The translations under genes were made by a program, and so were the position numbers. The notes beneath the pieces were generated by a model that was not told the origin of the DNA, did not search any database, and was given only the letters and a program-made list of their open reading frames with translations. A stretch of 63,999 nucleotides of DNA, filler included, from Aduncisulcus paluster (Eukaryota), in assembly GCA_024181965.1 (NCBI GenBank). It is 11 parts of 11 records of this genome, joined end to end, with 100 filler letters (N's around TTAATTAATTAA, not from the genome) between each part and the next. Parts side by side here need not be neighbours in the genome. Positions count along the whole stretch, not along the records: positions 22,182 to 27,180 come from BQXS01011504.1; 10 more parts are not named here. One strand, 5' to 3'. Of the stretch, positions 1,067 through 58,907 are shown one piece after another; within the stretch, counting starts at the first letter, position 1, and the number at the start of each line of letters is the position of its first letter.

Positions 1067-4000
1067 ATGGATATAATTGGGCTTAAGCGCCAAATTAGTT
1101 TCACAACTTATGGTTCTCAAGGGACAATTCATCCAACATCGTCCTTTTTGATTCAACGTGGTGAAATGCAAGAAGGTGGATCCTTCGATGAAGAAGAGGC
1201 GAGATATATCGAATCTCAAAATATTATATCAAAAGGGGGTCTTGGAATATGGGCAGGTGTCTTTACAAAATGTTGCCTTACTATATTGTGTTCTGTTCTG
1301 TTCCAACGTGTTCCTTATATTATTTCCCATTTGGGAGTGGGAATTACAACAGCAATGGTTTTATTTGTTTTCATTACAGTCCTTATTACGTCTTTTTCTC
1401 TCTCATCTTTGTCAAGTAACGGTAAAATCGGTGGTGGTGGGATATATAAGCTTATATCAAGATCTATCGGGCCAATTTGGGGGACAACAACGGGTACTCT
1501 TGTATATCTTGCCAACAGTCTCTCAATATCCCTTTTTGCTCATGGTTTTTCCGAAAGCGTCGTTGACATTTTTAAATTATCACTTACACAGAATCGAAAT
1601 TATGATATCCGTATAATCAGTATCTTTATAATATTGTTACTTTTAGGTATTGTCAATTTGGGAATTCAATGGATGTGGAAGATTGATGTTGTGTTTCTTC
1701 TCCTCACGATTGTGTCTATAATTTGTTGTGTGATTGCAATTGCCATTCCCCATGATACCATCGTTAGTTCTTCATATTTTGTCGATGAATTGAGTTCAAC
1801 CAATTCTCTTGCACTTCATTCATGTTTATTTTTTTCCTTATTGTTTGACTCAAAGTCAGACGATTCTGCACCTTTTTCTGAACATTATTTCAATATTTCC
1901 TCTCAAAAATACACCTTTTCCAATGATAATAATCTCATTTCCCCCAATATTACCTCGACAAATGCTGTGTTTGATTTTTCTTCCTTATCCGATGATTCCT
2001 TTCCTTCTTCCTCTTCTTTTTCGCCATCTTATTCCCCCTTTCCAGCATTCTTCAACCTTAATAATGAAAATAATGACAATTTTAGTTTATTTGAGGATAA
2101 TTCATTTTATTCTCAGTCTTTTTTGCATCATTTTGCATCTCTCTCGAAATCTCTCACGACTCTCTCAAATTCAAACGATTCTTTCCTCTCTCATTCTGCC
2201 TTAATGTCTTATTACTCATCTTCTTCTCAGTCTCATCTATTTTTGGATCCTTATTATTCGCCCTCTGAAACAACAGAAACCCCAGTCACCTCATCAACCT
2301 CATCTTCATCATTTCAATTTAGATCGTTTTTCTCATTATCTAATTTTAGAAAATCATTCAAACCCCCCTCTTCATCTGCCTCTACCTCTGGCTTTTCCAC
2401 CATTCTTTCCTCATTCCGATCATCCTTAGCCCTATTTTTACCTGCGGTTTCCCGCATCTCCCTCGGAACAACAATCTCTGGCTCTCTTAAGAATGCTCAA
2501 ATAGCCATTCCTCAGGGCACTCTCTTCTCCCTCCTTGGCGGATTGATTGTATATCTGGCTATAGTCTGGGTTTGTGGCCTTGGTGTTGATGTAGAAACAC
2601 TTATGTATCCTGATTCCAGCGATTCCTCGCTCACCTCTCTCACTTTCAAACGATTCTTTCCTCTCTCATTCTGCCTTAATGTCTTATTACTCATCTTCTT
2701 CTCAGTCTCATCTATTTTTGGATCCTTATTATTCGCCCTCTGAAACAACAGAAACCCCAGTCACCTCATCAACCTCATCTTCATCATTTCAATTTAGATC
2801 GTTTTTCTCATTATCTAATTTTAGAAAATCATTCAAACCCCCCTCTTCATCTGCCTCTACCTCTGGCTTTTCCAGAAATCTCTCACGACTCTCTCAAATT
2901 CAAACGATTCTTTCCTCTCTCATTCTGCCTTAATGTCTTATTACTCATCTTCTTCTCAGTCTCATCTATTTTTGGATCCTTATTATTCGCCCTCTGAAAC
3001 AACAGAAACCCCAGTCACCTCATCAACCTCATCTTCATCATTTCAATTTAGATCGTTTTTCTCATTATCTAATTTTAGAAAATCATTCAAACCCCCCTCT
3101 TCATCTGCCTCTACCTCTGGCTTTTCCACCATTCTTTCCTCATTCCGATCATCGCTCTCAAATTCAAACGATTCTTTCCTCTCTCATTCTGCCTTAATGT
3201 CTTATTACTCATCTTCTTCTCAGTCTCATCTATTTTTGGATCCTTATTATTCGCCCTCTGAAACAACAGAAACCCCAGTCACCTCATCAACCTCATCTTC
3301 ATCATTTCAATTTAGATCGTTTTTCTCATTATCTAATTTTAGAAAATCATTCAAACCCCCCTCTTCATCTGCCTCTACCTCTGGCTTTTCCACCATTCTT
3401 TCCTCATTCCGATCATCCTTAGCCCTATTTTTACCTGCGGTTTCCCGCATCTCCCTCGGAACAACAATCTCTGGCTCTCTTAAGAATGCTCAAATAGCCA
3501 TTCCTCAGGGCACTCTCTTCTCCCTCCTTGGCGGATTGATTGTATATCTGGCTATAGTCTGGGTTTGTGGCCTTGGTGTTGATGTAGAAACACTTATGTA
3601 TCCTGATTCCAGCGATTCCTCGCTCACCTCTCTCACTTTCAATCCCCTTAACTCATTCTCTTTCTTCATCGATGTTGCTCGGAGCCTGTGGAACAAAGGA
3701 GAAGATCCATCCGAGTTATCATCCTTTGGTTCCCTTGGGGATAATTTAACATCAGCAAGTGCCATCTTTGCCTTTTTGTTATACATCCTCGTCATTGTCG
3801 GGATTCTCCTCTCTTCACTCACATCTGCCCTTGTGTCTCTGTTCGGTGCTCCCAGGATGTTTTCTGTGCTAGTTAATGATGGTCTGATAAAGCTTATGCT
3901 GCCACTGGGTAGAGCAAGTGAGCCATTTGCATGCAAATCATGCCATAAAGAACAATCAATTGATGTTTCTAATCTAAAATCTGATACTTGTAAGGGTGTA

Positions 4001-19700: not shown

Positions 19701-21390
19701 CATGGTCCAGTATCTTCTCAATTATCTATTTTTGGAACAGTCAATCATGGTATGCATGGAAACACTGCCAAGCAAAGCAAACGATATGAAGTGCATGGAG
19801 GAAAGAAGTTGAATTCAGCACATATGAGTTATCATTCAAGAAGTGAGTACAAACAAGCCAAAAGGCAAAAAAGAAGAGAGAAATCTACCTTGAAAACTTT
19901 GGAAGAAAGAAGAGGAGCCATATTGTTACCAAGATTGGCCTTATGCGACACTGTAGCTGTAGCCGAAGAAGAAGAGAGAGAAAAACAAAAGAGAAGAGAG
20001 GAAGAGGCAAGAAGAGGAAGCGTTGTTGATGTTTTATCAACTTGGGAAAGAAATAGAAGAGAATCAGTATTATCACCTCGTTTTGGCCTTGGAAGTGCGC
20101 GTGGCGGCCTTGGAAGTGCGCGTGGTGGCCTTGGAAGTGCGCGCAATTCATCTTCAGCGAGGGAGAAAGATGATCGAGGAGAAAGAAGAAGAAGAGGAGG
20201 AGGAGCTATTAGTGTGGACATGGACGATGGGAAAAGAGGAGATGAAGAGTATTCTTCCTCTTCTAAGAATGATGATGATGATTTGGAGCTAATTCAAAAC
20301 AAGAAACCTGCACGTAATGTTTGTATTTTTGTCGATTCTGTGTCATTTATGTTGAGTCTTATTCAAAATAGACAAGATGATCTGATTCGGAGAGAAAGAG
20401 TCAATCTGGCACTGAAAGCCCGTGAGAAGTCCAAATCTAATTTTAGAATTGAGGAGGAAAGCGGTTCAACCNNNNNNNNNNNNNNNNNNNNCCTTATGCG
20501 ACACTGTAGCTGTAGCCGAAGAAGAAGAGAGAGAAAAACAAAAGAGAAGAGAGGAAGAGGCAAGAAGAGGAAGCGTTGTTGATGTTTTATCAACTTGGGA
20601 AAGAAATAGAAGAGAATCAGTATTATCACCTCGTTTTGGCCTTGGAAGTGCGCGTGGCGGCCTTGGAAGTGCGCGTGGTGGCCTTGGAAGTGCGCGCAAT
20701 TCATCTTCAGCGAGGGAGAAAGATGATCGAGGAGAAAGAAGAAGAAGAAGAGGAGGAGGAGCTATTAGTGTGGACATGGACGATGGGAAAAGAGGAGATG
20801 AAGAGTATTCTTCCTCTTCTAAGAATGATGATGATTTGGAGCTAATTCAAAACAAGAAACCTGCACGTAATGTTTGTATTTTTGTCGATTCTGTGTCATT
20901 TATGTTGAGTCTTATTCAAAATAGACAAGATGATCTGATTCGGAGAGAAAGAGTCAATCTGGCACTGAAAGCCCGTGAGAAGTCCAAATCTAATTTTAGA
21001 ATTGAGGAGGAAAGCGGTTCAACCTTATTGTTTAACCAAATTGATGTATTTAAATGTGAAGCTATTTTATTACGATCAAGGCATCTAATTTTGGAAGCTC
21101 GGATGAAACGATTGAAATCTGTGATTGACATTTTTGACATGTTACGTAAAAATATGACTTCTTACCAAGTTTTGGAAAGAGATTTGAGTCGTTCTCCTTC
21201 TCCTCAACTAGAAAATATTGATTTGCCTCCTAATTTGGTGAAATTACCATTAAAACGACACAAACCACCACCTCCGTCACTGATTTTTGCCACAACTCAA
21301 GCTTACGAAGGATATATTCAAATGAAATCAAAGTGGACGAAAACGATGATGGATTCATTTGGAAGTACTCTCGATGAAAGTATAGATTGA
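16711..21390 (+). CDS. Large low-complexity (poly-S, poly-E, K/R-rich) protein, 5' partial, split by a gap with duplicated flanks
   Basis: ORF of about 1,250 codons before the gap continues in the 20422-21390 ORF after the duplicated block. Contains a 21-nt tandem repeat encoding (GLGSARG)x3. Confidence 0.7.
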
Positions 21391-22181: not shown

Positions 22182-22262
22182 AATACAAACAAAATCCAGT
22201 TTATTCTAAGTCCATATCGAAATTAATAACACCAACAACTAAAACCTACCAGTACAGCAATA

Positions 22263-24413
22263 ATGTCTTTTTCTAAACCAACAACAAAGCCTTTCAGCAA
22301 AGCATGTCTTGAACAATTGAGAGTTTCTATTAAAATGACCACCTTTGAATTGATCCCACTTTATGAAAAATCTCAATCACGTCTTCAGGCCATCTTTGAC
22401 GAATACACGACACCTTCTGCAATTACATCCAATCGAGATCTCTTCGCTCTTTGTTTCGAATGTTTATCCCTGTTCGTGAAGCATAAAGTTACGAAAGAAG
22501 AAGATGGAGAAGAAGATATTGAGGTCATCCTCGATAAATCTTCCATCAAGAAGATCATTGACTCTTTCTTGCCTCAAATGATCAAAGTTGAATCTGTTCT
22601 GAGGATGAATGGAGAAATGACAAGAAGAAGAAGAAGAAGAAGAAGAAAGTGGAACAAAAGAAGCTGGCGTGAGCTCTATCACAATGTTATTGTTTAGAAT
22701 TCTAAATGTCTCTCTTGACAAAGTTGAATCCATTCGAAGCAGAATATTTCCCCAATTCTATTCTCTTCTCTCCAAAATATTAACTTTGGGTGAATACAAA
22801 AAACTTGAGAATTCTTTTGTTAATGATATCCTCGAAATATGTCGAAAAATTTCCTATTCTCATCGTAACTCCACTAAAGATTCCCTTTTATCCATTCTTA
22901 TCCGTCATATTTTACCGTGGATGAGGAGGTATCCCGACAAGAAGTTCTTTTTGCATTGGACAAACATTTTGAAGAATATCACTCTTGATGAAGATAACAA
23001 ACGCCCTCATGAAGGTCGTTCCTCACAACTCTGGTTTGTCTTCCATCCTGTCTTGGATGTGATTAAAGATACAGATTCCAAGGGTGTAACATTTGATGAT
23101 GAAGCTATCGTTCGTTGTTTATTATTCTTTGCTCATCTGAGTTGCATTCCTTCCCAAGCTATTGAAATTCATAAATGCATCAAAGATGATCTTCTTGATA
23201 GTTGGTTTGAGATGGTAAAGAAGAATAAGGAAGAAAAAGATGATAGCGCCGGTGTTAAATGCTGGTCCAAACTTGTTTCCATGCTATCAGAAATCCCCTC
23301 AATTGTTCCCCAACTTTCACCTAAATTTGATGATGAGATGTATTGGTGCATGAAAAATGGAGGATGGAGAAATTATTATTCAAGGTATCTTGGTAATTGT
23401 TTTGCTTCTCTCAAGAAATGGAAGGAATTAATTGATTCCATTAAGAAATGCTCTGATTCTGAGTCAACTGCTGAACTCTTCGATGAACATCGAGATGAGA
23501 TCCTTTCTGTATTCCTTGCATATCAATCAAAGAGTGAGATTGAAGAACATAAGAAGGAGATTATTCTTTGCTTTCTATGTTTAGAATTGTTTGTTATACA
23601 TGTTATTTCTGGAACTAATATCTATCTCCCTAATTCTGATTTGAATGATCTCATTGACATTTTCATTGATCATTTATCAAGGGTTGAGCAGGTATTGGAA
23701 GGAGATGTTGATGAAGAGTATTGTAGGATTTGTGCTGGTTATACTTTCAAAGTTAAAGATAAATGGGATTCCTTCTTACCCAAAATATCTCCCACTTTTA
23801 CTTCCAAACTTGAAGATAAATGGGATTCCTTCTTACCCAAAATATCTCCCAGTTTCCAACGTATTCTTGAGAGAGGAAGTGAGAAAAAGTTGGGAGGAGA
23901 TGTTGCTCTACAATTATTAATGACTCTCAAAAATATCTCTATTTCACCAACTTCTTCCACTCGGTATTCTATTCTCACCCTCATCAAACCATATATCAAA
24001 GATTGGTTGAGGATATACAATGATTGCAAGTGTTATGGAGAATGGATGATTATTTTATCAAAAATCACCCTCTCAAGTGATGATGAAACACCCGAAAAAT
24101 CCCTCTGTTCTGAAGCTTGGCCTCTTTTCCACCCTATTCTTGATGTTGTTAAGAAAGAGTTTGTTGGGAATAAGATTGTTGGGAATGGTCATGAAGAAGT
24201 TCTACACTTCTTCTCCAACTTATGTTGTGATCCATCGGCTGCTCAGGAAATCTATGATAATGTTGAAGGTCTTCTTGATGGGTGGTTTGCTGTTTTTAAG
24301 GATAAAGATCATATGTTGGGAATTCATAATTGGGCCAATCTTGTTTCCATGTTTTCAACTGTTTCGTCTCTTGTTCCTCTGATATCTCCAAAATATGATG
24401 AGGACATGGAGTG
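22263..24413 (+). pseudogene. Helical-repeat family member (ARM/HEAT-like), frameshifted near 22620 and truncated by a retrotransposon
   Basis: Highly similar to the ORF at 40300-42763. The frame shifts just before the GAA tract (the paralog reads EEEEGGTGEAGVNSITM). The ORF stops at KYDEDME where the paralogs continue (M[EK]WC). Confidence 0.8.
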
Positions 24414-24454
24414 CCCATGAGCACTCCATCTGTTCAGAGTACCGTTATGCATAT
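24407..24454. repeat. 48-bp direct repeat, terminal copy (B2 plus overlap with host)
   Basis: TGGAGTGCCCATGAGCACTCCATCTGTTCAGAGTACCGTTATGCATAT is identical to 24879-24926. Confidence 0.95.
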
Positions 24455-24878
24455 ATAACATTTACTAAGCCGCGATCTTCCTTCATCCTGTTCTTCCGGT
24501 TCTTCTTTTGCCACGTCTTGGTTGTCTGTGCCCGGCTGCGAGTTTGTTGCGACGTCGGGCTGCTTCTCCGATTCTTCGGATTCTTCTTCTGCTTGAGAGT
24601 CTTCTTCAGCTTCATCTTCCTTTCTTGCATTTCTTATGCGTCTTGGTGGCATGAATTTGTGCTCGCGTTTCTTGAAATGTAAACAAAGAGCACTCTCCTT
24701 CCTGTTTTCTGTGCCACCTTTCCACTCCGATCGGAGTGGATACCCCCTTGCGTTTCTCTGGTCCTCGACCTGTTTCACGGTATGTAAAATTCTTTCTGTT
24801 GTTATTAAATTTTCTTTCTACTAATTTTGTTGTTTTCGTTATTATGCCCCCTTCTTTCTACGGTATTCTGAAATACTC

Positions 24879-24926
24879 TGGAGTGCCCATGAGCACTCCA
24901 TCTGTTCAGAGTACCGTTATGCATAT
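24879..24926. repeat. 48-bp direct repeat, internal copy (B1/A junction) abutting the YR stop codon
   Basis: Identical to 24407-24454. The YR stop lies at 24926-24928. Confidence 0.95.
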
Positions 24927-27169
24927 TATTTTCGAGGCGAGCATAATGTGGGCCAGCCCATAGCCTCACGGACTGATCTATCTATGTATGCCATGTATCC
25001 TTCTACTGTTGACCAGCCCCCCAATGACATTATGACTTCTTGTCTCACTCCTGAGCATAGCAGGTGGATCACCGCCCCCCGTCGGAGAGCGTGTGATCCC
25101 GTTTGTATCCCAATAACTCTCTGTGACTGGAGAGTGAATGACTGTTTCAATCTCTTTGATGGATCTTTGTTCTTCTCGGGGTGTATATCACCGAACAGGA
25201 AAGCCTGACTATGTAATTGGACTACTTCGTGCTTTTGAAGAAGTTTTCTTAGTAGATCGAAAGCCCCCACCGGACCGTCCTTGTTTATCCGTACCATAAT
25301 TCCTGCTTTAGTTTTGTTAGATGGGCAGAATAGGAGTATATAATCTCTAAAACATCTTATCCCTCCTAGTCTGATGGATGCTACAGATCCAGCCCGGGAA
25401 ACCGTCTCGAACGTGACTGCTGCCCATGTGGCCAGGGCTAACATTCCCCTTTCCATAACGACTCTAACGAATTCTCGCACCTCGTCCACTGTCATTGCAT
25501 CATGACGGTATCTTTCGGCCGGTGTTGAGGTGGCTCTTCTCCCCAGTAGGGACATAAACCTCCGACGAAGTGACGAGGGGGGTTTCCCCGTTAGAACCTC
25601 CATGTAATTCCTGAACTTTTCCCACATTGATGTGGTTTTCTGGTTTTCTCCCACCCAGAGTCTTGCTTGATCTGCGAGGAACTGTATCCAGGGCATGTCT
25701 CCTCTGGATTTCTCTACCAGTCGTCTCATTCTTCTTCTGCGATCATTTGTGGCGACTGGTCTTCCCACGTCGTCGGCCTCGTGGGCAGCCAGCCTACTCT
25801 TAATCGTGCCGTCCTCTTGTGTAGTTGACACCATCTTCTTAAGTATATCGGTGTCTCCTTCGGTCGCACGTCCAATGAGTGACTGCAGCTCTCCCCAATC
25901 CATTTCACCAAATGCGGCGTTAGAGGCGACGCCACCACTGCTATACCAGAGGTAGCTGTGAGAGGAGCGACTATACTGTCTGTTTCCTTCTCTAATTCCT
26001 CGAGGCGGGCCAATGTTTCTAATTCTAGCCCCGGCTTTGTATGCATTAATAGTCTTCCACGGGTTAGCGTCACCTGGGCCAGTCTTTCTCTTCCATCTTC
26101 TGGGGTCATTGCCTTTGTCAGCGGTCCCCAGCTGGCCATGATGTGTTGGGATGTTTCTGTTAATTCTTGCTTCTTTTCCCTTGAGGCGGCGTCCGCCCCC
26201 ACGTTGTCTGTTCCTGGGATCCAGATAGGAAAGAATTGTACACCCTGTTTTTCTGCTAATTTCCAGGTTTGTGTGGCTATTTCTTGCATGTTTCTTGAGG
26301 AAGAGCCCCGAATGAGAGCCGATCTTGCTGCGACATTGTCTGTGCCCCAGACCCAAAGTCCTGGTGCGAGAAGAGTCTGACCGACCACCTGTTGGAGAGC
26401 TAATAGTTCTGCACTTGTAATATGACTGGTCTCTTGTCTTCTTATCCGGATCGTCCTCTTTGGCCTTCCACGTTCTAATATCACTGCTCCCAATCCTGTG
26501 TCGGATGCATCTGTGAGGATGGTCCCTCTTGCCACTCTGGGTGGCCATTGAGCGATTGGATGCTCCACTCTTCGACACCAAAACTCTAATTGCATACGGG
26601 CGTCCTGCGAGACATCCTGTCTGCCTTGTCTGTTCCGGTGTAAGTGCGAGAGTTCCCTTAGCAGTGCCTTTGTGAAAACGGCTGCAAACGGAAAAATCCG
26701 CCGCAGAAAGAGCAGGTGGCCGACCATCTGCTTTATGGCCAGCTTTGTCCATCTCTTTTCCTTGCTTCTTCTTTCGAGCAATTCCTGGAGCTTGACCTGT
26801 TTTCTTTCTGATATGGAAATTGTCCACTCCTTTGTGTCTAGGACATATCCGAGAAATTCCAGGTGTCTTGTCGGTCCAAGAGTCTTTTCGTGCGAGATTT
26901 GTGCACCTAATCTTGCCGCTAGGTCCATGAAAACCTTCACTTCTTTGCTTGCATCCTCTTGTGTTCTCGACATTAAGAGGAAGTCGTCTATATAAACGAC
27001 CATAACCAACCCCCTTTTTCGCGCTAGTTTTGTAATTTCTGATGTGATTTTCTGGAATATGTAAGGAGACCAGCTGGCCCCAAAGGGGAGAACGTTTGTT
27101 ATATAGAATGTGTCTTCTGTTTCTACTCCTAAGAGTCTGCGGTCCCTTGGGTGGATAAGAACTTGCCAA
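24926..27169 (-). CDS. Tyrosine recombinase ORF of the retrotransposon
   Basis: Catalytic set R (VSRAGSV), K (SNKTK), HxxR (SHALRRG), W (LGGWST) and Y (YMAYI) lies in the C-terminal part. The long N-terminal frame overlaps the RT ORF, as is typical for DIRS. Confidence 0.93.
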   Translation of the reverse strand: MASSYPPKGPQTLRSRNRRHILYNKRSPLWGQLVSLHIPENHIRNYKTSAKKGVGYGRLYRRLPLNVENTRGCKQRSEGFHGPSGKIRCTNLARKDSWTDKTPGISRICPRHKGVDNFHIRKKTGQAPGIARKKKQGKEMDKAGHKADGRPPALSAADFSVCSRFHKGTAKGTLALTPEQTRQTGCLAGRPYAIRVLVSKSGASNRSMATQSGKRDHPHRCIRHRIGSSDIRTWKAKEDDPDKKTRDQSYYKCRTISSPTGGRSDSSRTRTLGLGHRQCRSKIGSHSGLFLKKHARNSHTNLEISRKTGCTILSYLDPRNRQRGGGRRLKGKEARINRNIPTHHGQLGTADKGNDPRRWKRKTGPGDANPWKTINAYKAGARIRNIGPPRGIREGNRQYSRSSHSYLWYSSGGVASNAAFGEMDWGELQSLIGRATEGDTDILKKMVSTTQEDGTIKSRLAAHEADDVGRPVATNDRRRRMRRLVEKSRGDMPWIQFLADQARLWVGENQKTTSMWEKFRNYMEVLTGKPPSSLRRRFMSLLGRRATSTPAERYRHDAMTVDEVREFVRVVMERGMLALATWAAVTFETVSRAGSVASIRLGGIRCFRDYILLFCPSNKTKAGIMVRINKDGPVGAFDLLRKLLQKHEVVQLHSQAFLFGDIHPEKNKDPSKRLKQSFTLQSQRVIGIQTGSHALRRGAVIHLLCSGVRQEVIMSLGGWSTVEGYMAYIDRSVREAMGWPTLCSPRK

Positions 27170-27179
27170 AACCCCTTTC
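25726..27179 (-). CDS. Reverse transcriptase / RNase H (DIRS-type), 5' partial
   Basis: The frame is open to the contig end: KGFWQV...LPFGASWSPYIFQK...VYIDDFLL...FLGY. RNase H motifs TDAS, SAEL, TDN and WIPGTDNVGADAASR follow. Confidence 0.95.
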
Positions 27180-27180
27180 T

Positions 27181-35613: not shown

Positions 35614-38600
35614 ATGACTGTACCTGACAAAACAAAATTTTTGTTAAAAGGAATGAACGCTGATAATTGGCAGGACTTTAAAGATGGTTATGAAGAATAT
35701 TCTTTACAAGGAGGAAAACTTCAAATGGTAAAATTAATTCCAAGAACTCATTTATTGACCCTTATGACCAAAGTTAAAATGGCCCGTTTAACGTCGAAGA
35801 ATATTGAAGACTTCTATAAATAAGTTGAAAAATCTTTTCAAACAACTAATTTGAGAGAGCTGTATCACCGATTGGAACTCCTAAAGATGAGGACGCCAAT
35901 TACGCAAAAAAAACTACGAAGCTTATGTGGCAGTATACCTAAAAGATTTAAATGGGGTGAAAATACCTTTGGAAAAGATAAAAAATCAATAACCGACTAC
36001 TTCATGACGGGATTACCATCTTGTTTAAAACGAGACATACAGGCTGTCTTGGATCACAAATCCTTACAAGAGCATCCTGAGCTCTCAGAGTTTTCAGAGG
36101 ATTTTGCTTATTTCTCCGATCTAATAGACCAATCCAAATCAAAAGCCAAAGAAAAGGAATCAAGAGAAGACGACGAGATATGTTCCTCGGATGATTCGGA
36201 GGTACGTGCTCTAGAAGANNNNNNNNNNNNNNNNNNNNTAAATAAGTTGAAAAATCTTTTCAAACAACTAATTTGAGAGAGCTGTCACACCGATTGGAAC
36301 TCCTAAAGATGAGGACGCCAATTACGCAAAAAAAACTACGAAGCTTATGTGGCAGTATACCTAAAAGATTTAAATGGGGTGAAAATACCTTTGGAAAAGA
36401 TAAAAAATCAATAACCGACTACTTCATGACGGGATTACCATCTTGTTTAAAACGAGACATACAGGCTGTCTTGGATCACAAATCCTTACAAGAGCATCCT
36501 GAGCTCTCAGAGTTTTCAGAGGATTTTGCTTATTTCTCCGATCTAATAGACCAATCCAAATCAAAAGCCAAAGAAAAGGAATCAAGAGAAGACGACGAGA
36601 TATGTTCCTCGGATGATTCGGAGGTACGTGCTCTAGAAGATCTCGATAAGAAACTGAGAGTCTTGGAAAGGAGAAGAAATATCCAGACCCCAAAGGGGGA
36701 ACCGGACGGCAAATTGATCCAAGAGACCGCTTTAACGGAAGAGGGAAAAGAGTTGGAGGAAGAGCTATTTCTCGAGGTATCCCCAGGACTGAAGGTTTTG
36801 TTGTCACATGTGGAAGCTGGTAGAGAAGTTCTGGCAGAACTTCCAGAGGTGGAGATGAAACACAGACAATATGGAAGAAGAGACCAAAGCTTCAACAAAG
36901 ACAAGACTGGGAGGATTAAATGTGAGTTCTGTAAGAGATATGGTCACACAGAAGAAAATGTTATAAAAAAGACCCAACAAAACGCCCAAAGAAGGACAGA
37001 GTCATGAAAATCCAAGACTCACCAGAATTCCGCAAGAAAAAGATAAGGATTAATGGAGTAGAATGTTCCGCGCTATTGGACACAGGAGCAGGAAAAAACT
37101 ACATCAACCAAGTGATATTCGAAAAACTGAAAGCTCAAGGAGTATGTATAAAGGAAGAACCCATTATGATAAAGGTGGCTGACAGAAGGGAAATTGAATG
37201 CTGACAACTGGTCAGAGCAATGACAGAGTTTAAACTGAAAGAATCATCAGTTAAGACCCTGAAACTTGAAATCAATTACCATGTTCTGCCTACTCTGCCT
37301 GATGTCGTTATTGGGAATGAATCGATCGATGCGCTCGACCTGCAAAGACTTGAAGAATTGAAAAGCACGGAGGAAGATCCAGAAGAAACCGTTGAACAAC
37401 CCTTGGACACCGAATTGGAATCCATCATACGAAAACACCAAGCTGTATTTTGTGAAATCAATGAAAAGCCATCTTTGATGGAACCCATGAAAATAATCAT
37501 GAAATCCAAGTACCAAGGTAAAAGCAAGGTAAGACGCATGAGCAAGGAAAAAGAAGACTATCTCCGGAAATTTATCAAGCAACTCGAGGACAAAAAGGTG
37601 GTTGAGGAAATCCAATTTAAGGAGAATGCGTCTCCTGTCTTCGTGGTTCCCAAGTAAGGACCAGAAAAGTACCGATTAGTAATGACTACAGTGGCTTAAA
37701 CCAACAACTTCCCTCTACCCAATATCGAAGCAGTCTTGGAAGGAATGAAAGGAGTTTCTCATTTGGGTACACTAGATTTAACCAATGGATTCTATCAACA
37801 AGAACTGGATGAAAGCAGAAGAAAGCACACTGCATTCATAACTCCATGGGCCGTATATCAATTTAAAAGAGTTCCTATGGGACTTTGTAACAGGCCAGGA
37901 GCATTCCAGAGAGAGATGACGAAGATCCTTAAGAAAGGAATCGGTTCAAAATGTTTCGTATTCATCGATGACATTGCAGTATTCGGGAAAACGCAGGTGG
38001 AATACTATCGAAACATGGATTGGGTATTGGAAAGTTTAAAGAAGAACAACATTTAACTCAAGCGGTCGAAATGTGTTTTTAACAAACAACAAGTGAGATT
38101 CTTGGGTAGGCTCATCTCAAGCAAAGGAATTAAAATTGATCCCGAAAAGTACTCAGCTCTAAGGAATCTACGTAACCCCACAACAACAAAGGAAGTGAGG
38201 AGCTTGTTTGGCCTGATGAGTTACAGTCGGAAGTATATTGATCACTTTGCTGAAAAAACAGAATTTCTTACGCAGAGAATGAGCTTGAAAAGACAACCGG
38301 AGTGGAAGAAGTCAGAAGAAACAAAGCTAAGACAATTACTAGATGAACTCCAATCCGCAGAAGTCTTGGCGTTCTATCAGCCGGGAAAAAAATTGATAGT
38401 ACAAACAGATGCATCGAAAATCGGCATCGGAGCAATGCTCAAACAAGAGCAAGAAGGAGAGGAAAGAGTAATTCAATACTTCTGTTTGGGATTAACGAAT
38501 TATAATAACTTATAATTGTTAATTATGTATTAATATTAAGCTGTTAGAAGTAATTTAAGGAATGGAGTTAACAGTATTGGGTGACGAGGTGTCAACCAAC

Positions 38601-40299: not shown

Positions 40300-42763
40300 T
40301 CCATCAAGAACATTATTGACACTTTCTTGCCTTCAATGATCCGAGTTGAAAATATTCTGAGAGTGAAAGAAGAAGAAGAGGAGGAGGAGGAGGAAGAAGG
40401 TGGAACTGGTGAAGCTGGAGTGAATTCCATTACAATGTTATTATTTAGGATGCTTGGCAACTCTACAAATCATGTTGAATCCCTTTGTGTTTCCATTTTC
40501 CCCCAAATTTCTTCCCTCCTCTCCAAGATGTTTATTCTTACCCTATCCAAGAAATTTGAAGATTCTTTTATTGAGGATATCCTTCTAACATGCGCAACTA
40601 TTGCATATGCCAAAGATGATCCCACCAAGAACTCTCTTTTATCCCTTCTTCTCCCTCACATCTTACCTTGGATGAAGAAGTATCATGATAAGAAGTTCTT
40701 TTTCTTGTGGACAAACATCTTGAAGAATATTACACTTGATAAAGATAACACCGATCCTCATAAAGATCGTTCCTCAAAACTTTGGTTTGTCTTCCATCCT
40801 GTCTTGGATGTGATTAAGGATACTGCTTCCAAAGGTGTTACATTTGATGATGCTGCTGTAATTCGTTGTTTATTGTTCTTTGCTAACTTGAGTTGTATTC
40901 CTTCCCAAGCTGTTGAAGTGCATGATTGTATTAAAGATGGTCTTCTTGATGGTTGGTTTGAGATGATAAAGAAAAAGAGTGAAGCAGGGAAAGGTGATGG
41001 TAATTGGGGAATCAAATACTGGTCCAGACTCATTTCCATGTTCTCCACTGTTCCATCTCTTGTTCCTCACATATCTCCCAAATATGATGCCTACATGGAA
41101 TGGTGTAAGAAGAATGGGGGTCGGTATGATGATTATTCAAGATATCTTGTTAACTGCTATCCTTCTCTGAAAAAATGGTCAGAATTAGTTGAATCTATCA
41201 AGAAATCCCCTGACTCAGAATCCACTTCCAAACTCTACCATGAACATCGAGATGAGTTTCTTTCCGTCTTCCTTACATTCCAATCAAAGAGTGAGATTGA
41301 AGAGCATAAGAGAGAGATAGTTCTCTGTTCTCAGTGTTTAAGATGGTTTGCTAGACATTATATTTCTGGAAATATGATCTTTCTCCCTATTCCTGATCTG
41401 AATGATCTCATTGACACTTTCATTGGTCATCTATCAAGATGTGAGGAAGTGTTGGAAGGAGATGTTGATGAAGAGTATTGTATGATTTGTGTGAGTTATA
41501 CTTTCAAAGTTCACGATAAAAGAGATTCCTTCCTTCGAAAGATCTCCCCCACTTTCCAACGTATTCTTGAGAGAGGAAGTAAGGAGAAGTTGGGAGGTAA
41601 AGTTGCTCGAAGTTTATTAATAACTCTCAAAAACATCTCTATCTCTCCCTCTTCTTCCACTCGATCCTCTATTCTCACCCTCATCAAACCATATATCAGA
41701 GATTGGTTGAGGATATACAATGATAGTAAGTGTTATGGAAGTTGGATGTTTATTCTATCAAAAATCACCCTCTCAAGTGATGATTCAACCCCCAACAAAT
41801 CCATCTGTTATAAAGCTTGGGCTCTCTTCCACCCTGTTCTTGATGTTGTTAAGAGAGAGTTTGTCGGGGATAAGATTGTTCAGGATGATCATGAATGGGT
41901 TTTATTATTCTTCTCCAACTTATGTTGTGATCCATCACATGCTGTTGAAGTCTATGATAATGTTAAGGATCTTCTTGATATGTGGTTTACAGTTATGAAG
42001 AAGGAAGGACATAAACGGGGAATCAAATACTGGTCCAAACTCATTTCCATGTTCTCCACTGTTCCATCTCTTGTTCCTTTCATATCTCCCAAATATGATA
42101 CCAACATGAAATGGTGCAACAATAATGGGGGTTGGAGTGACGATTATTCAAGATATCTAGTTAACTGTTATCCTTATCTGAAATGGTCAGAATTAGTTGT
42201 AACTATCAACAAGTGCCCTGACTCAGCATCAAAATACAGGTTGTACCATGAACATCGAGATGAGATTCTTTCTGTCTTCCTTGCATTCCAATCAAAGAGT
42301 GAGATTGAAGAGCACAAGAGGGAGATTGTTCTTTGCGCTCAGTGTTTAAGATGGTTTGTTAGACATGTTATTTCTGGAAATGATATCTATCTCCCTATTC
42401 CTGATCTAAATGATCTCATTGACACTTTCATTGGTCATCTATCAAGATGTGAGGAAGTGTTGGAAGGAGATGTTGATGAAGAGTATTGTGATATTTGTAT
42501 CAATTATACTCACAAAGTTCATTATAAATGTGATTCCTTCCTTCCTAGGATCTCTCCCACTTTCAAACGTATTCTTGAGAGAGGAAGTAAGGAGAAGTTG
42601 GGAGGTAAAGTTGCTCTAGATTTATTAAGAACTCTCAGAAACATCTCTATCTCTCCCTCTTCTTCCACTCGATCTTCTATTTTCACCCTTATCAAACCAT
42701 ATATCAGAGATTGGTTGAGGATATACAATGATAGTGAGTGTTATAAACATTTGATGGTTATTC
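40300..42763 (+). CDS. Helical-repeat family member (ARM/HEAT-like), partial at both ends
   Basis: Open across the whole contig. Tandem units of about 340 aa contain FHPVLDV, WSKLISMFSTVPSLVP.ISPKYD and EHRDE.LSVFL.FQSKSEIEEHK. Confidence 0.88.
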
Positions 42764-44192: not shown

Positions 44193-47100
44193 TTATTTCT
44201 TACGAGGTGTTCCATGAGAGCGTTTTTTCTCAGATTCTGGCTTCTTCTTCTTTCTCTTCTTCTTGGTTATTCTTTTCTTCGTCTCATCTTTCTCACCTTT
44301 CAAAGATTCGATATTTTTAGAAGCGACAGAATCGATACCATCAATCGGTGCCAGTGCAATGCGTTTTGAACTCTTATGTTTTTTCTTTACGGTTGAACCA
44401 TGCTCATGTTTCTTGGATCTCTTCACTCTACGAGTTTTTGTAACAGTTGGTACAGAAACTTGTCCATCCATGTCATTAGATTGTAAATGTGCATCATCTC
44501 TAATAGAAACTCTAGGACTCTCGATAGCGGCAACATCAACAGAAAGTATCCCATGCACACCAACTTCTTTCTCATTTTCGACACAAGGAACATGTGAAGC
44601 ATACGATTCGTCCAAAATAACTGAAGATGCATCAAATCGAAGATCAACAGGTTGGAGAGAGGAGAATGGTGGAACCGATTGTCTATTTATAGTTGATAAA
44701 TGAGAAACATTATTCTTTTTCTCACTATTTTTCTCAATGTTTTTCTTGGTTTTAAACCACATAAAGAATGTGAAAGCAGCGAATGCAACACAGAAAATGA
44801 AAATAATACACAAAATAACCAGCCCAACGTGACCTTTTGCCTCATCTTCACAGTATAAACCGGTCCAACCATCATTGCAGACACAATCGTATTGGAAAAT
44901 CCCAGAATTGTAGTAGCAACTTCCATGGGAAGAACACACCATCGAGGAATTGAATTCCACCCCACACCGATCCAGAGAACAAGATATTGGGGAGGAAGTG
45001 AGTGAATTATCTGAATAAGAACCCCATCCATACTCACACTGACATAAAGCTGTTTGGTAATCGGTATCAAACACACAGGTGCCATGACTATCCGTGGTTG
45101 TTCCACAGGTCAAGCAAGCAGTGTCATTTCCAGCAATGTCCTTATATTCAGGGTGAGTCGCAGGATCAATGCATGTGGATGTGGATGCATCAGTGATGAG
45201 ACCATAGGAGGAACAGTCACACGAATATGTGTCAGTGTCTGATGAATAGATTCCATAGTCTGAATATGATGAAGATGGATCTGTGGAGTAATTAACTCCA
45301 CACACATAATCAACGATAGTCGGGTTTGTTTCATCATCATCATTCACATACTCAACAGTCTCAACAGGATATTGAGTGAAACATGTTGACCCATACCATC
45401 CAGCATCGCATTCACAATACAATGTCTCAGAAGAATAATCAGAAAATANNNNNNNNNNNNNNNNNNNNGATCAATGCATGTGGATGTGGATGCATCAGTG
45501 ATGAGACCATAGGAGGAACAGTCACACGAATATGTGTCAGTGTCTGATGAATAGATTCCATAGTCTGAATATGATGAAGATGGATCTGTGGAGTAATTAA
45601 CTCCACACACATAATCAACGATAGTCGGGTTTGTTTCATCATCATCATTCACATACTCAACAGTCTCAACAGGATATTGAGTGAAACATGTTGACCCATA
45701 CCATCCAGCATCGCATTCACAATACAATGTCTCAGAAGAATAATCAGAAAATAGATCACTGACAGCACATCGACCATGCAGACCACATCTTGACAAACTG
45801 TCACAATAGAGGTTGCATGCTGATCCATAATACCCAGACTCACACACACATGTATGGGTGGCAGCATCACATGTTCCACGAGAAGATCCACTGCACATGC
45901 CAAAGGTAGATACAGGGCAGACAAAGGAGCAATCATCACCATACCATCCATCAGAACACTCACAATACGGCAAAGAATCGCCAGAATCCACATCATACAC
46001 ACATGTTCCACGCTCACCACCACAGTTGGAGCATGAAGAAGGAGAGGAGGAAGCAGCGGAAACACATTCACCAGAAGAAACGTCTTCATAGTATCCTGAC
46101 CCACAGATGCATGCCAACTCTGTATCATCACCATTGTCAACAGAGTAATCAACTCCACACACACGATGATCCTCAATTAAACATAAAACAGAGCCAGATC
46201 CACATGGAGAAGTCGTATCTTGAGAAACAGATGATTCTGAGGGATCACTCACATCTCCGAATATAACCTCAACCCCAGATAAGTCACAATTGCACATGGC
46301 AGTGAGAGTTTCCATGCATTGGGAGCTCGTCGAACCACAATCGAGTCTATTATCACTGACGTCAACAAATACTGCATGACTATCATTATTCGCACTCACA
46401 ATTGTCAGTAATAGAGCAAGGTCAGAGATGGAGTTGTCACTCAGAGTCAGATGTGTCACACCAGAGAAACCAGGCTGGAGTGAAACGATGGTAGGGTCAG
46501 AGATAGCATTGGAGGACAGATCAAGATGTGTCAGAGTGGATGACAATGGATATACTTTCGTTCCATCATCACTGCTGACACACTGACCACTGCACATGGA
46601 TAGGTTGTTCAGCAAAGAAGCAATAGAAGACAGATCGGAACCAATGGAATCACTCCCACTGATCTCCAGAGAACTTAGAGAACAAAGACCAACACAGTAC
46701 GATTCAGACGTTCCATTCCAGCGTGAAGTGTCAGACTCAAGATCCATCTTCAGAGCACCGACAGCATCCGTCAATGTGCTCAGAAGTGATACATCCATGT
46801 TTTCAAGGGAATCAAGCTCAAGCACATACAACGAGGATAAGGATGCAATGGGTGATAGATCGGAGATGAGAGTGTTCCCAGGCTCAAACGAAAGGATCTC
46901 AAGGTGCTCGGCATATTCAAGCCCTGAGAGGGAAGCCACGGTGGTTGGGATGGTGAGAGATGTGATGGTGGAGAGATCATCCACAGTCAGCGAGGAGAGA
47001 ATGTTTTCAGCAGCAGAAGAAGAACATAACGATTGAACATCTGCATCATCAACATATATGGACTCACAGATAGCTTCAACGAGGGCAACATCCATCTCGA

Positions 47101-56102: not shown

Positions 56103-58907
56103 GTGAAAGAAGCGAGAAGAGAGAGACGGATGGAGAGAGAAAGAGAGAGGAAAGAGTTGGAAAGAGAGAAGAGGAAGAGGGAAGAGGAAGAGAAGAGAAA
56201 GGTCGAACTAAAATTAAGGAAAAAGAGCAATATAATTAAGCTTTCAAAGGAAGCTGGTATATCTCCTTCTCCCCCTCATGGGGATGAAGAAGAAGCCAAG
56301 GAAGCCAAGGAAGACCAGGGTGAGCGTTCATCAAGCGTCAGCATACGATTGAAATCTGGAGCTGCTGTTAAGTACTGTGGTGGGGTTTGTATTCGGGTGT
56401 TTGTTCCGCTTTGTTCTGAAGTGTGTGGATGCATAGGAATCAATGTTGCAGGCTTTCTGAGACATTGGAACGAATGGAAAAGGAAAGATAATGATAGACG
56501 TGGGAAGAAACATGTGACATCATGTATCGAACATCTCTTAACCCCTGAGGTTGGGACAAAGCGTTCTTCAGATAGTTCTACAAGTGAAAACGTGAATGAG
56601 GAAAGTTTTGGAGGTAGTGAGAGTAGCACTATACATACTCCACGTTCTAAGAATGCAGCTCTTTCGTCGTCTGTATTCCTTTCTTCATCTCTCACGCACA
56701 CTCGTTCAATCGAGGCCGCCTCAAGCGCCACTATCACACCCCCTCCAGATTCACCCTTTCACTCACTTATCCCTTCTCCTCAAATCTCACAATCACCAGC
56801 GCTTGACCTGCTCTCTGGTGAGTGCATAGCTGGTATTCTGCTCTGTGGCTCTGACAGAGAAAGTATACCCAAGGATAAATTACTCCTCCTAGAGGCAAAC
56901 AACCCAATCGTAGGGAAATCTGAAGCTATACCACACGTGGATAAAATAGATGCTGACGACGGAGCTGCTGGAGATCTATCTGTCAATGAAGGGATAACCA
57001 GTGGATTGGGAAGGAATCTCTCAGCAAACCTAAATCCTGCAAGACAATGTATATTAGACTCCCTTGAGTCTGTTAAGGAGGAAGAGGCTGCTCTTTCCGT
57101 GGCTCTCGTCACATGTTTCTCTCTTACTGTGGCCCTAGATGAGTGGGAGAGGGAGTTGTGTGGGGTGCTGAGTGTTCGGGATGGTGGAAAGGGTGGAAGA
57201 GTTGATATCGACGGCTGTGATAATTCATCAAAGCCGCTTCAACCCTCTGATGTTGTTTTGTTCCACCCTGAAATATATTCCTATGATCTTAAACATATCT
57301 CAGATGATAAGAAAAAATCTAAGTTCCCATTGCTCTCAAAATCTATTCAATCCAAGTTTTCTACAAATAATGTAAGATATTCTATTCCTATTCTTAGTCG
57401 TGTCTTTTCTCTTCTCGTGAAATCATCAACTTCTAACTCTGGTTTCATTCGATTAAGCACTACGCAATTGTGTTGTAGACTTATCTTGGAATTAGCACAC
57501 CCTGTTAGTAGTACATCATTATATTCTAGCGTATACCTCGATTCGAATGACGGTGTCGCCTTGAATGTGCCTGCTTTTCTCCACCCGTCCCATTTGCACG
57601 ATCTTGTCCTTTCTTTGTCTCGCACTCGCATTAACCTCTCTATTTCAATCTGTGAGTGGCTCTCGCAACAACCAAAGGGAAAGATCGAGGATGAGATGTC
57701 AAAGCGTGAACAACGTGATATCGATCGGGCTGAATCGTGTTTGCTGTCAACGCAAGAACAAGATATTCAGGAACAGCGTGCTCCTGTTGAAGGGTGTGAT
57801 TCTATTGATCTGAGAGAGACATCAGAAATGAAGAAGCGGTGGATGAAGGTCAAAGAATACGTGCAAGATTGTCAAAGGGAGGGGGAACGTATTGCGACAA
57901 TGAGAGCTGAAGGAAAAGAAGCAGAAATTGAAGATTCGATTGACCCTCTTGAGTTGTGGAATAAGATTAAATTTATTGTCGGAACTGATTCCATCCCAAG
58001 CTTATACCGATCTTTACGTTTCTCGCTCCAATTTATGATTCCCGTATCCCTNNNNNNNNNNNNNNNNNNNNAACAGCGTGCTCCTGTTGAAGGGTGTGAT
58101 TCTATTGATCTGAGAGAGACATCAGAAATGAAGAAGCGGTGGATGAAGGTCAAAGAATACGTGCAAGATTGTCAAAGGGAGGGGGAACGTATTGCGACAA
58201 TGAGAGCTGAAGGAAAAGAAGCAGAAATTGAAGATTCGATTGACCCTCTTGATTTGTGGAATAAGATTAAATTTATTGTCGGAACTGATTCCATCCCAAG
58301 CTTATACCGATCTTTACGTTTCTCGCTCCAATTTATGATTCCCGTATCCCTTGAAAAATTCCTTTCCTCTTCCTTCCATCTTCTTCCTTCTGAACATGTT
58401 GATTCCAAGACTCCTCTCCCGAATCGGTTGCCTCATTCTATTGACGAACGTCTGGAGCTTGATGTGTGTCGCATGGCTTGCATTGTGTGTGTGTGTATGA
58501 GTATTGGACTCATATGTGGTCCTGCAGGATGGGAAAGAGGGGAGGAGAGAGAGAGATGCACTGCTGAGGAAAAGAAAACAGAGGAGGAGACAGTTGATTT
58601 CCTTGAAGAAAAGGAGGAAGAAAAAGAAGATGTCATAAAAATAGATGCTGAGAGAGATGATATAGTGGCTGGCATCAATGAGTTAACAATTGAATTGGGT
58701 GAAGTCCCTCTGGATAAAGGAAAAGAGGAAGAGGAGGAAAGTGAGAGTGAAAGTTTGTTGGCAGAAGATGAAGAAAGAATACCTTTCGATCTTGAGTCAA
58801 TTTTATCATTCTTCGTGAATGCAAATCGACAGCAAAAGTGTTACGGTGAGGCAAAGAGCACTGGTCGTGTGAAAAAGGTGACGATCACTGATCTATTATT
58901 GTACTAA
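56103..58907 (+). CDS. Possible CLEC16A/TT9-like protein, C-terminal part
   Basis: IRLSTTQLCCRLILEL and RLPHSIDER resemble recalled CLEC16A segments (IRLATLELSCLLLKQ; RLPCGDVE). The CDS is clear, the identity tentative. Confidence 0.55.
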   Translation: MKEARRERRMERERERKELEREKRKREEEEKRKVELKLRKKSNIIKLSKEAGISPSPPHGDEEEAKEAKEDQGERSSSVSIRLKSGAAVKYCGGVCIRVFVPLCSEVCGCIGINVAGFLRHWNEWKRKDNDRRGKKHVTSCIEHLLTPEVGTKRSSDSSTSENVNEESFGGSESSTIHTPRSKNAALSSSVFLSSSLTHTRSIEAASSATITPPPDSPFHSLIPSPQISQSPALDLLSGECIAGILLCGSDRESIPKDKLLLLEANNPIVGKSEAIPHVDKIDADDGAAGDLSVNEGITSGLGRNLSANLNPARQCILDSLESVKEEEAALSVALVTCFSLTVALDEWERELCGVLSVRDGGKGGRVDIDGCDNSSKPLQPSDVVLFHPEIYSYDLKHISDDKKKSKFPLLSKSIQSKFSTNNVRYSIPILSRVFSLLVKSSTSNSGFIRLSTTQLCCRLILELAHPVSSTSLYSSVYLDSNDGVALNVPAFLHPSHLHDLVLSLSRTRINLSISICEWLSQQPKGKIEDEMSKREQRDIDRAESCLLSTQEQDIQEQRAPVEGCDSIDLRETSEMKKRWMKVKEYVQDCQREGERIATMRAEGKEAEIEDSIDPLELWNKIKFIVGTDSIPSLYRSLRFSLQFMIPVSXXXXXXXXQRAPVEGCDSIDLRETSEMKKRWMKVKEYVQDCQREGERIATMRAEGKEAEIEDSIDPLDLWNKIKFIVGTDSIPSLYRSLRFSLQFMIPVSLEKFLSSSFHLLPSEHVDSKTPLPNRLPHSIDERLELDVCRMACIVCVCMSIGLICGPAGWERGEERERCTAEEKKTEEETVDFLEEKEEEKEDVIKIDAERDDIVAGINELTIELGEVPLDKGKEEEEESESESLLAEDEERIPFDLESILSFFVNANRQQKCYGEAKSTGRVKKVTITDLLLY

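Follow-up and report, generated by a model that had tools for sequence, protein, structure and literature searches.

The window, i.e., the whole 63,999-nucleotide stretch of the Aduncisulcus paluster genome (G000) that was analysed, consists of contigs strung together by N44-TTAATTAATTAA-N44 linkers. Near-identical duplications of 270–420 bp occur at 2162–3454, 19939–20758, 35817–36538, 45164–45753, and 57772–58351; four of the five flank 20-N gaps and resemble scaffolding artefacts. The element under study lies on the piece at 22182–27180 (contig C11504), where the 5′ part of a host gene is followed, on the opposite strand, by the 3′ half of a tyrosine recombinase (YR) retrotransposon with split direct repeats (PAT/Ngaro type). 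Paralogues of the host gene at 41095 and 42106 belong to a separate contig, C11507. The features are as follows:

22621–24406, plus strand: 5′ part of the host gene, interrupted at ...S-P-K-Y-D-E-D-M; the gene belongs to an expanded family whose internal repeats measure ~1 kb
24407–24408, unstranded: TG common to the host target and the element junction, with the crossover between 24406 and 24409
24407–24428, unstranded: 22-bp imperfect palindrome with 8-bp arms, entirely element-derived, with three exact copies in the genome
24407–24454, minus strand: B2, the 48-bp 3′ terminal repeat of the element, identical to B1, with the same end on contig C12564
24455–24481, minus strand: 27-bp stretch separating A2 from B2, which A1 lacks and the solo copy has
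24482–24878, minus strand: A2 repeat, 397 bp, over this span identical to A1 on contig C11377
24860–24917, unstranded: B1/A2 junction, a model of the circle junction; 58 nt, predicted to fold into a single hairpin whose inner stem has the crossover at its base
24879–24926, minus strand: B1 repeat, immediately behind the YR stop codon
24926–25828, minus strand: tyrosine recombinase part of a long overlapping ORF (PF00589, E = 5.5e-08)
25726–27180, minus strand: RT/RNase H ORF, cut by the contig end (PF00078, E = 4.1e-19)
41095–41106, plus strand: paralogous M-E-W-C codons, uninterrupted, contig C11507
42106–42117, plus strand: paralogous M-K-W-C codons, uninterrupted, contig C11507

Layout of the element and its host gene

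The overall order of the element is A1-gag-RT/RH-YR-B1-A2-B2. The catalytic motifs of the YR (R, H-x-x-R, W, and Y) were in place, and the RNase H motifs were aligned to P0001. The gag-like ORF terminates in a CCHC-like motif, and its start is duplicated in the A2 region (24434–24817). The C-terminal 150 aa of the RT/RNase H ORF occupy the position of a methyltransferase (MT) domain; the Pfam search of the element returned no MT domain match, hhalign against the C-termini of 100 homologues gave a probability of 13.6%, hmmsearch was not significant, and in-register MT motifs were seen by eye only. A perfect 20-bp palindrome lies inside the A repeat, in the gag-like frame (24721–24740), and likewise in A1 and the solo copy.

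A genome search with 24380–24940 returned three places: the window, C11377 (A1, the gag-like ORF, and the RT start), and C12564 (a solo A-B unit). In these DNA searches only the best candidates were scored, and the counts are lower bounds. The half in the window and the half on C11377 are one copy. Contigs derived from the reads of two runs of one sample continued, in both runs, for 926 letters past 27180 and so reached A sequence; compared with the 864 bases on C11377 from the inner end of A1 to the contig end, this leaves a gap of ~60 bases in the RT. These contigs connect the RT to gag and A1 and stop short of the A1 outer flank, for which the link is C11377. Depth in X1 was 1199.5 for the element body, 1289–1321 for long unique host records, and 3788 for a record inside the A repeat, which, set against the single-copy element body, indicates about three A copies. 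Summed depth over the host gene reached 395,598 and was not used as a copy number.

The A repeat is ~400 bp long and near-identical at three places, and the run contigs break within it, as would be expected if the A copies had been mis-phased and the near-complete element in fact sat at the AT-rich site of C12564, with the solo A-B unit in the host gene. Such an artefact is nevertheless very unlikely: a base at 24760 and a 2-bp indel distinguish the solo from the window copy, A1 and A2 being identical, and the empty site would be unchanged, the two gene flanks abutting on a paralogue (L117, below) either way. No loose contig end was found at 24407 among the 12 listed of 143.

The host family is large, with at least 147 intact P-K-[YF]-D-x-x-M-x-W sites in the genome versus 0 for a control pattern. 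Its members at 22621–24406 and 40300–42763 had no Pfam match at the cut-off, and their internal repeats measure ~337 aa. The host gene also contains a 57-bp tandem duplication (23757–23870; K-D-K-W-D-S-F-L-P-K-I-S-P twice), which is missing from the C11507 paralogue.

Exchange point at the host–element junction

The first-pass annotation had given the letters at 24391–24428 correctly, and the identity of TGGAGTG at 24407–24413 with 24879–24885 was confirmed, as were the paralogous codons ATG GAA TGG TGT (41095) and ATG AAA TGG TGC (42106), though these lie on another contig. Its further proposals, that TGGAGTG is host-derived and that the overlap is 7 bp long, were not borne out. TGGAGTG constitutes the first 7 bases of a 48-bp identical run (24407–24454 vs. 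24879–24926), preceded by A at 24406 and by C at 24878, and thus belongs to the element's own B2 end. On C11377, the outer flank of A1 reads TG CAG TGG TGT AAG, and the host frame resumes as Q-W-C-K-D-N-G-C-W. Of 13 paralogues compared, the intact one most similar to the left flank, L117 (C9983), reads GAG GAC ATG CAG TGG TGT AAG. In separate alignments, L117:1522 is the last position matched by the left flank (78% identity over 300 bp) and L117:1523 the first matched by the right flank (95% over 62 bp), with no gap and no overlap. From the two flanks and this paralogue, we infer that the empty allele read ATG CAG TGG, i.e., that the target was Met-Gln-Trp, so that A24406, the last certain host base, is host-derived, G24409, the first certain element base, is element-derived (at a position where the host read C), and host and element overlap by 2 bp (TG). 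Nothing is duplicated past the TG, as in the DIRS order, and the exchange point coincides with the outer edge of the palindrome (left arm), in or beside the TG at 24407–24408.

On C12564, the solo copy shares this TGGAGTG end, which there adjoins unrelated AT-rich DNA; its A end reads TGTATTG. It carries T for C exactly at the A-end junction, which makes its register uncertain and possibly off by one; elsewhere it differs from the element by one substitution and the 2-bp indel. In a sister family, whose YR is 69% identical to that of the window element, three B ends begin with TGGAGTT in three unrelated flanks; no A start was found for this family. One of these ends, on C11726, lies inside a repeat, and three of the four closest copies of that repeat are empty and lack the arm (...TTACA/TATTAAAG, the slash marking the joint), while the fourth has other sequence joined there. 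The C12564 and C11726 ends in unrelated flanks, together with the armless empty copies at C11726, largely correspond to what the first-pass annotation had named as the mark of an element-derived arm. For C12564 and C10032, no empty allele was present among 131 sequences.

The repeat targeted on C11726 is ~320 bp long (L024 7567–7890; L063, L065, and L066) and has ~30 genome matches, and the joint there resembles the CA end of a short AT-rich LTR. At the same CA/TATT point, L064 1488–1504 (C11067) has a different palindrome, with 7-bp arms; this stretch is single-copy, could represent another insertion or an LTR variant, and was excluded from all counts. In two copies (L024 7483–7569 and L025 1842–1941), B directly behind the YR is followed by host DNA without A2-B2, likely through B1 × B2 recombination.

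A second family (family 2) includes a complete 4-kb split-direct-repeat YR element (L026 3235–7249, C12441) with the same A1-B1-A2-B2 layout as the window element, and a solo copy on C12636. Its flanks join in the empty paralogues C11961 and C11642 with zero bases gained or lost, and the join is the outer edge of a 12-bp terminal palindrome. A 3-bp GAG overlap read from the filled ends of family 2 was rejected, as the empty paralogue C11961 has no such triplet. For the insertion on C84, the empty-site search returned only the insertion itself, and in a related RT piece on C12703 the similarity is lost before the junction is reached. Across filled and empty sites of two element families, the exchange point is therefore the outer edge of the terminal palindrome, with at most 2 bp of identity.

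Fragments of a third, more distant RT/YR family were also encountered (L037, L038, L040, L042, L044, L022, and L028); on C11846, a member of this family has a 9-bp inverted repeat after the YR stop and a tRNA-like sequence ~330 bp further. Metagenome contigs yielded 313 pattern matches and 0 confirmed relatives of the element.

Possible target preference and the host family

The claim as filed was that a YR retrotransposon homes to a protein-coding family: a loxP-like site would be cut in mid-palindrome, the arm rebuilt from M-E-W codons, and the family would serve as a renewable safe harbour. The genome shows otherwise. A canonical loxP-type crossover falls in the spacer between the inverted arms, whereas the crossover here maps to 24406–24409. 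Cut centrally, the palindrome would have left one of the element's arms at the A end; the bases after the TG are host-derived at both A ends observed, which argues against such a cut. The codons themselves are suggestive, in that one near-complete copy sits in the family at M-x-W codons and ATG GAG TGG, a 7/7 arm match, accounts for 30 of the 100 listed family sites by hand count. However, the codon that was hit is CAG rather than GAG; in the same hand count, CAG occupied the middle codon in 1 of 100 sites, and A stood at the middle codon position in 73. All listed sites are uninterrupted, including all 30 perfect matches.

The distribution of insertions likewise disagrees with family targeting. 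A tblastn search of the family protein against 10 loci, which cover the seven other YR insertions examined, matched only the C11377 locus, so that none of the seven lies in the family. The fraction of insertions in the family is one of two for this element family, one of five with the sister family, and one of eight with family 2, the single case being the starting point of the search. Repeated insertion at one family site is not seen, with the palindrome at only three places in the genome (a lower bound) and 147 family sites intact. The chance of one hit among eight is 4–22% if the family fills 0.5–3% of the genome, a range of our own choosing whose low end corresponds to 147 repeat units of ~1 kb. 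Given so few copies (two insertions, or five with the sister family), there is room for a modest family bias; homing from a loxP-like site to a safe harbour, in contrast, appears extremely improbable.

The related proposal that the YR selects targets resembling its half-site held in part: a weak likeness of the form A/TG-N-A-N-T was found, whereas the 7-bp match was not, the target being CAG. In the clade, every one of the five B ends is preceded by A, at a chance of 0.29 per end (P = 0.002; P = 0.007 when the end in the window is left out). Three targets have a known or inferred right side, TG CAGTG, TG TATTG, and TG TAATA, which match the arm past the TG at 4/5, 3/5, and 2/5 positions, respectively. 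The sum of 9/15, compared with 6,146 ATG sites in 162,410 bases, gives P of about 0.005, a post hoc value that comes from three sites, including the one from which the idea arose; for C12564 by itself, P = 0.11. The loose resemblance of the targets to the arm at the crossover suggests that the match is probably not pure coincidence, and we put a relaxed preference such as A/TG-N-A-N-T at about even odds. Such a preference would explain the hit on M-x-W codons: in two stretches of the family (4,250 bases), ATG.A.TG was counted three times, each time at these codons. In 162,410 bases the motif was counted 107 times, which scales to ~19,500 in the genome, and the M-x-W codons of the family make up well under 1% of these sites.

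It is nearly as plausible, though somewhat short of an even chance, that microhomology suffices, i.e., that the YR needs only TG (or ATG) and any further arm likeness is chance. Only three target right flanks are known, and without the window's target the arm matches fall to 3/5 (P = 0.11) and 2/5 (P = 0.37) against the ATG background; in addition, recombination of a 3-bp junction with an identical genomic sequence is described in the available part of PMC3266345. Against microhomology alone, A at +4 and T at +6 recur in all three targets, and both family-2 targets share A-T at +3/+4 with the end of their own element. As to where the arm comes from, this alternative and our preferred reading coincide; target preference is all that separates them. 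The accessible portions of PMC9341512, PMC6387122, PMC6681497, and PMC9210276 contained nothing on target sequence.

Our preferred reading, to which we assign a probability of about 0.82, is that a low-copy YR element inserted once in a member of the family, that the palindrome is the element's own 3′ end, and that the insertion was a chance hit on a common motif without homing. The YR would join the reverse-transcribed copy, with B1/A2 as its junction, to a host site. This site would be chosen with a relaxed, arm-like A/TG-N-A-N-T preference, which the Met-x-Trp codons of the family happen to spell. The same motif occurs at many thousands of other places, and insertion into the host gene would reflect chance and not safe-harbour homing.

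Predicted junction hairpin and comparison with known systems

In the split-repeat model, the B1/A2 joint is taken as the circle junction; PMC3266345 treats the counterpart in DIRS1-like elements. In the window, this joint has a 13-bp outer inverted repeat (24860–24872/24905–24917) around an 8-bp stem. Folded as single-stranded DNA, 24850–24930 (81 nt) reached −16.4 kcal/mol (z = −6.7), and 0 of 200 shuffles were as good; the z-scores of the opposite strand and of the integrated B2 end were −5.3 and −1.9, respectively, and the sense strand of the junction gave the same fold as RNA. Because the outer stem pairs A with B, it can exist only at the junction and would be split by integration. The family 2 junction has a different fold, with two hairpins (z = −3.4). 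Element bases stand beside the crossover at all eight B ends and host bases at all four A ends, and no swapped A/B case, as a heteroduplex might give, was found among these ends.

Nested within the preferred reading is a tentative and rather unlikely possibility, namely that the cDNA integrates as a folded single strand. The A and B ends would pair into a 58-nt two-stem hairpin that serves as the YR substrate; the YR would exchange one strand at the base of the inner stem, at sites that mimic the stem (A/TG-N-A-N-T), and replication would resolve the product. The predicted stability of the junction fold, its outer stem confined to the junction, and the unswapped B and A ends are consistent with this mechanism, as are two precedents in the available text of the sources: the cDNA of DIRS-1 is single-stranded (PMC7192593), and attC recombination proceeds by one exchange plus replication (PMC4792948). 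The different fold at the family-2 junction argues against it, and the inverted repeats could instead be ordinary sites that the YR binds as duplex DNA, or could form an RNA structure with a role in reverse transcription. If true, folded-strand integration would parallel, in a eukaryote, the recombination of integron attC sites, and the YR step of the DIRS order, so far untested, would gain a concrete substrate. According to the part of PMC7192593 available, the specificity of DIRS YRs had not been tested experimentally as of 2020, and a short defined junction with a candidate target motif would therefore be a usable starting substrate. The literature covered (titles and abstract openings, with few subscription papers) contained no such hairpin or target motif for PAT or Ngaro elements. 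What is new here is the predicted junction hairpin spanning the crossover; it and the mapped exchange point are the findings of lasting value.

The combination of RT/RNase H and a tyrosine recombinase in one element places it in the DIRS order, among the members with split direct repeats (A1-B1-A2-B2). This layout is described for both PAT and Ngaro elements in the accessible parts of PMC4157794, PMC8547959, and PMC9210276. The long frame overlap and the MT-bearing relatives make a PAT-like affiliation more probable than a Ngaro one. PAT-like elements (Pat1, Toc, and Kangaroo; echinoderm-form layout) have the same split direct repeats with internal repeats behind the YR, the same long overlap of the RT/RH and YR frames, and likewise a gag-like ORF with a CCHC-like end, and the RT relatives of the window element often bear a Dam-type MT (PF05869 in 11 of the 23 top matches scanned). 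Unlike them, the window element has at the MT position a 150-aa region without a Pfam MT match, and, apart from two at 40% and 38%, the listed representatives share no more than 34% identity with its RT.

Ngaro elements, as described in the available text of PMC3266345, lack an MT and usually lack ORF overlaps, whereas the window element has a long ORF overlap and the 150-aa region at the MT position. The Ngaros of the flagellate Cafeteria burkhardae share with it the A1-[ORFs]-B1A2B2 order, solo AB repeats, and occurrence in a flagellate; as far as the accessible part of PMC8547959 goes, an insertion-site preference, for virophage DNA and linked to ORF1, is already reported for them, while the window element has no demonstrated preference for a host compartment. 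DIRS1-like elements resemble it in YR integration at very short shared sequence (the trinucleotide rule) without target duplication and in a self-complementary junction. They differ in having inverted terminal repeats with an ICR, whereas the terminal and internal 48 bp here are direct repeats and no ICR is present, and in sharing an identical NTT triplet at both ends rather than 2 bp (TG) preceded by a host A.

The predicted junction hairpin is similar to integron attC and CTX phage attP sites, which are also imperfect hairpins with two stems, an unpaired centre, and an adjoining exchange point; the likeness is one of shape only, and the geometry in family 2 differs. R2 is a target-specific element of multicopy genes. 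Dada, in the portion of PMC8869645 available, also targets multicopy genes, and the idea of a multicopy safe harbour is common to these systems and to the first-pass annotation. Such elements sit repeatedly at one site of their target family, whereas the insertion described here is the only one of the eight examined YR insertions that lies in the family.
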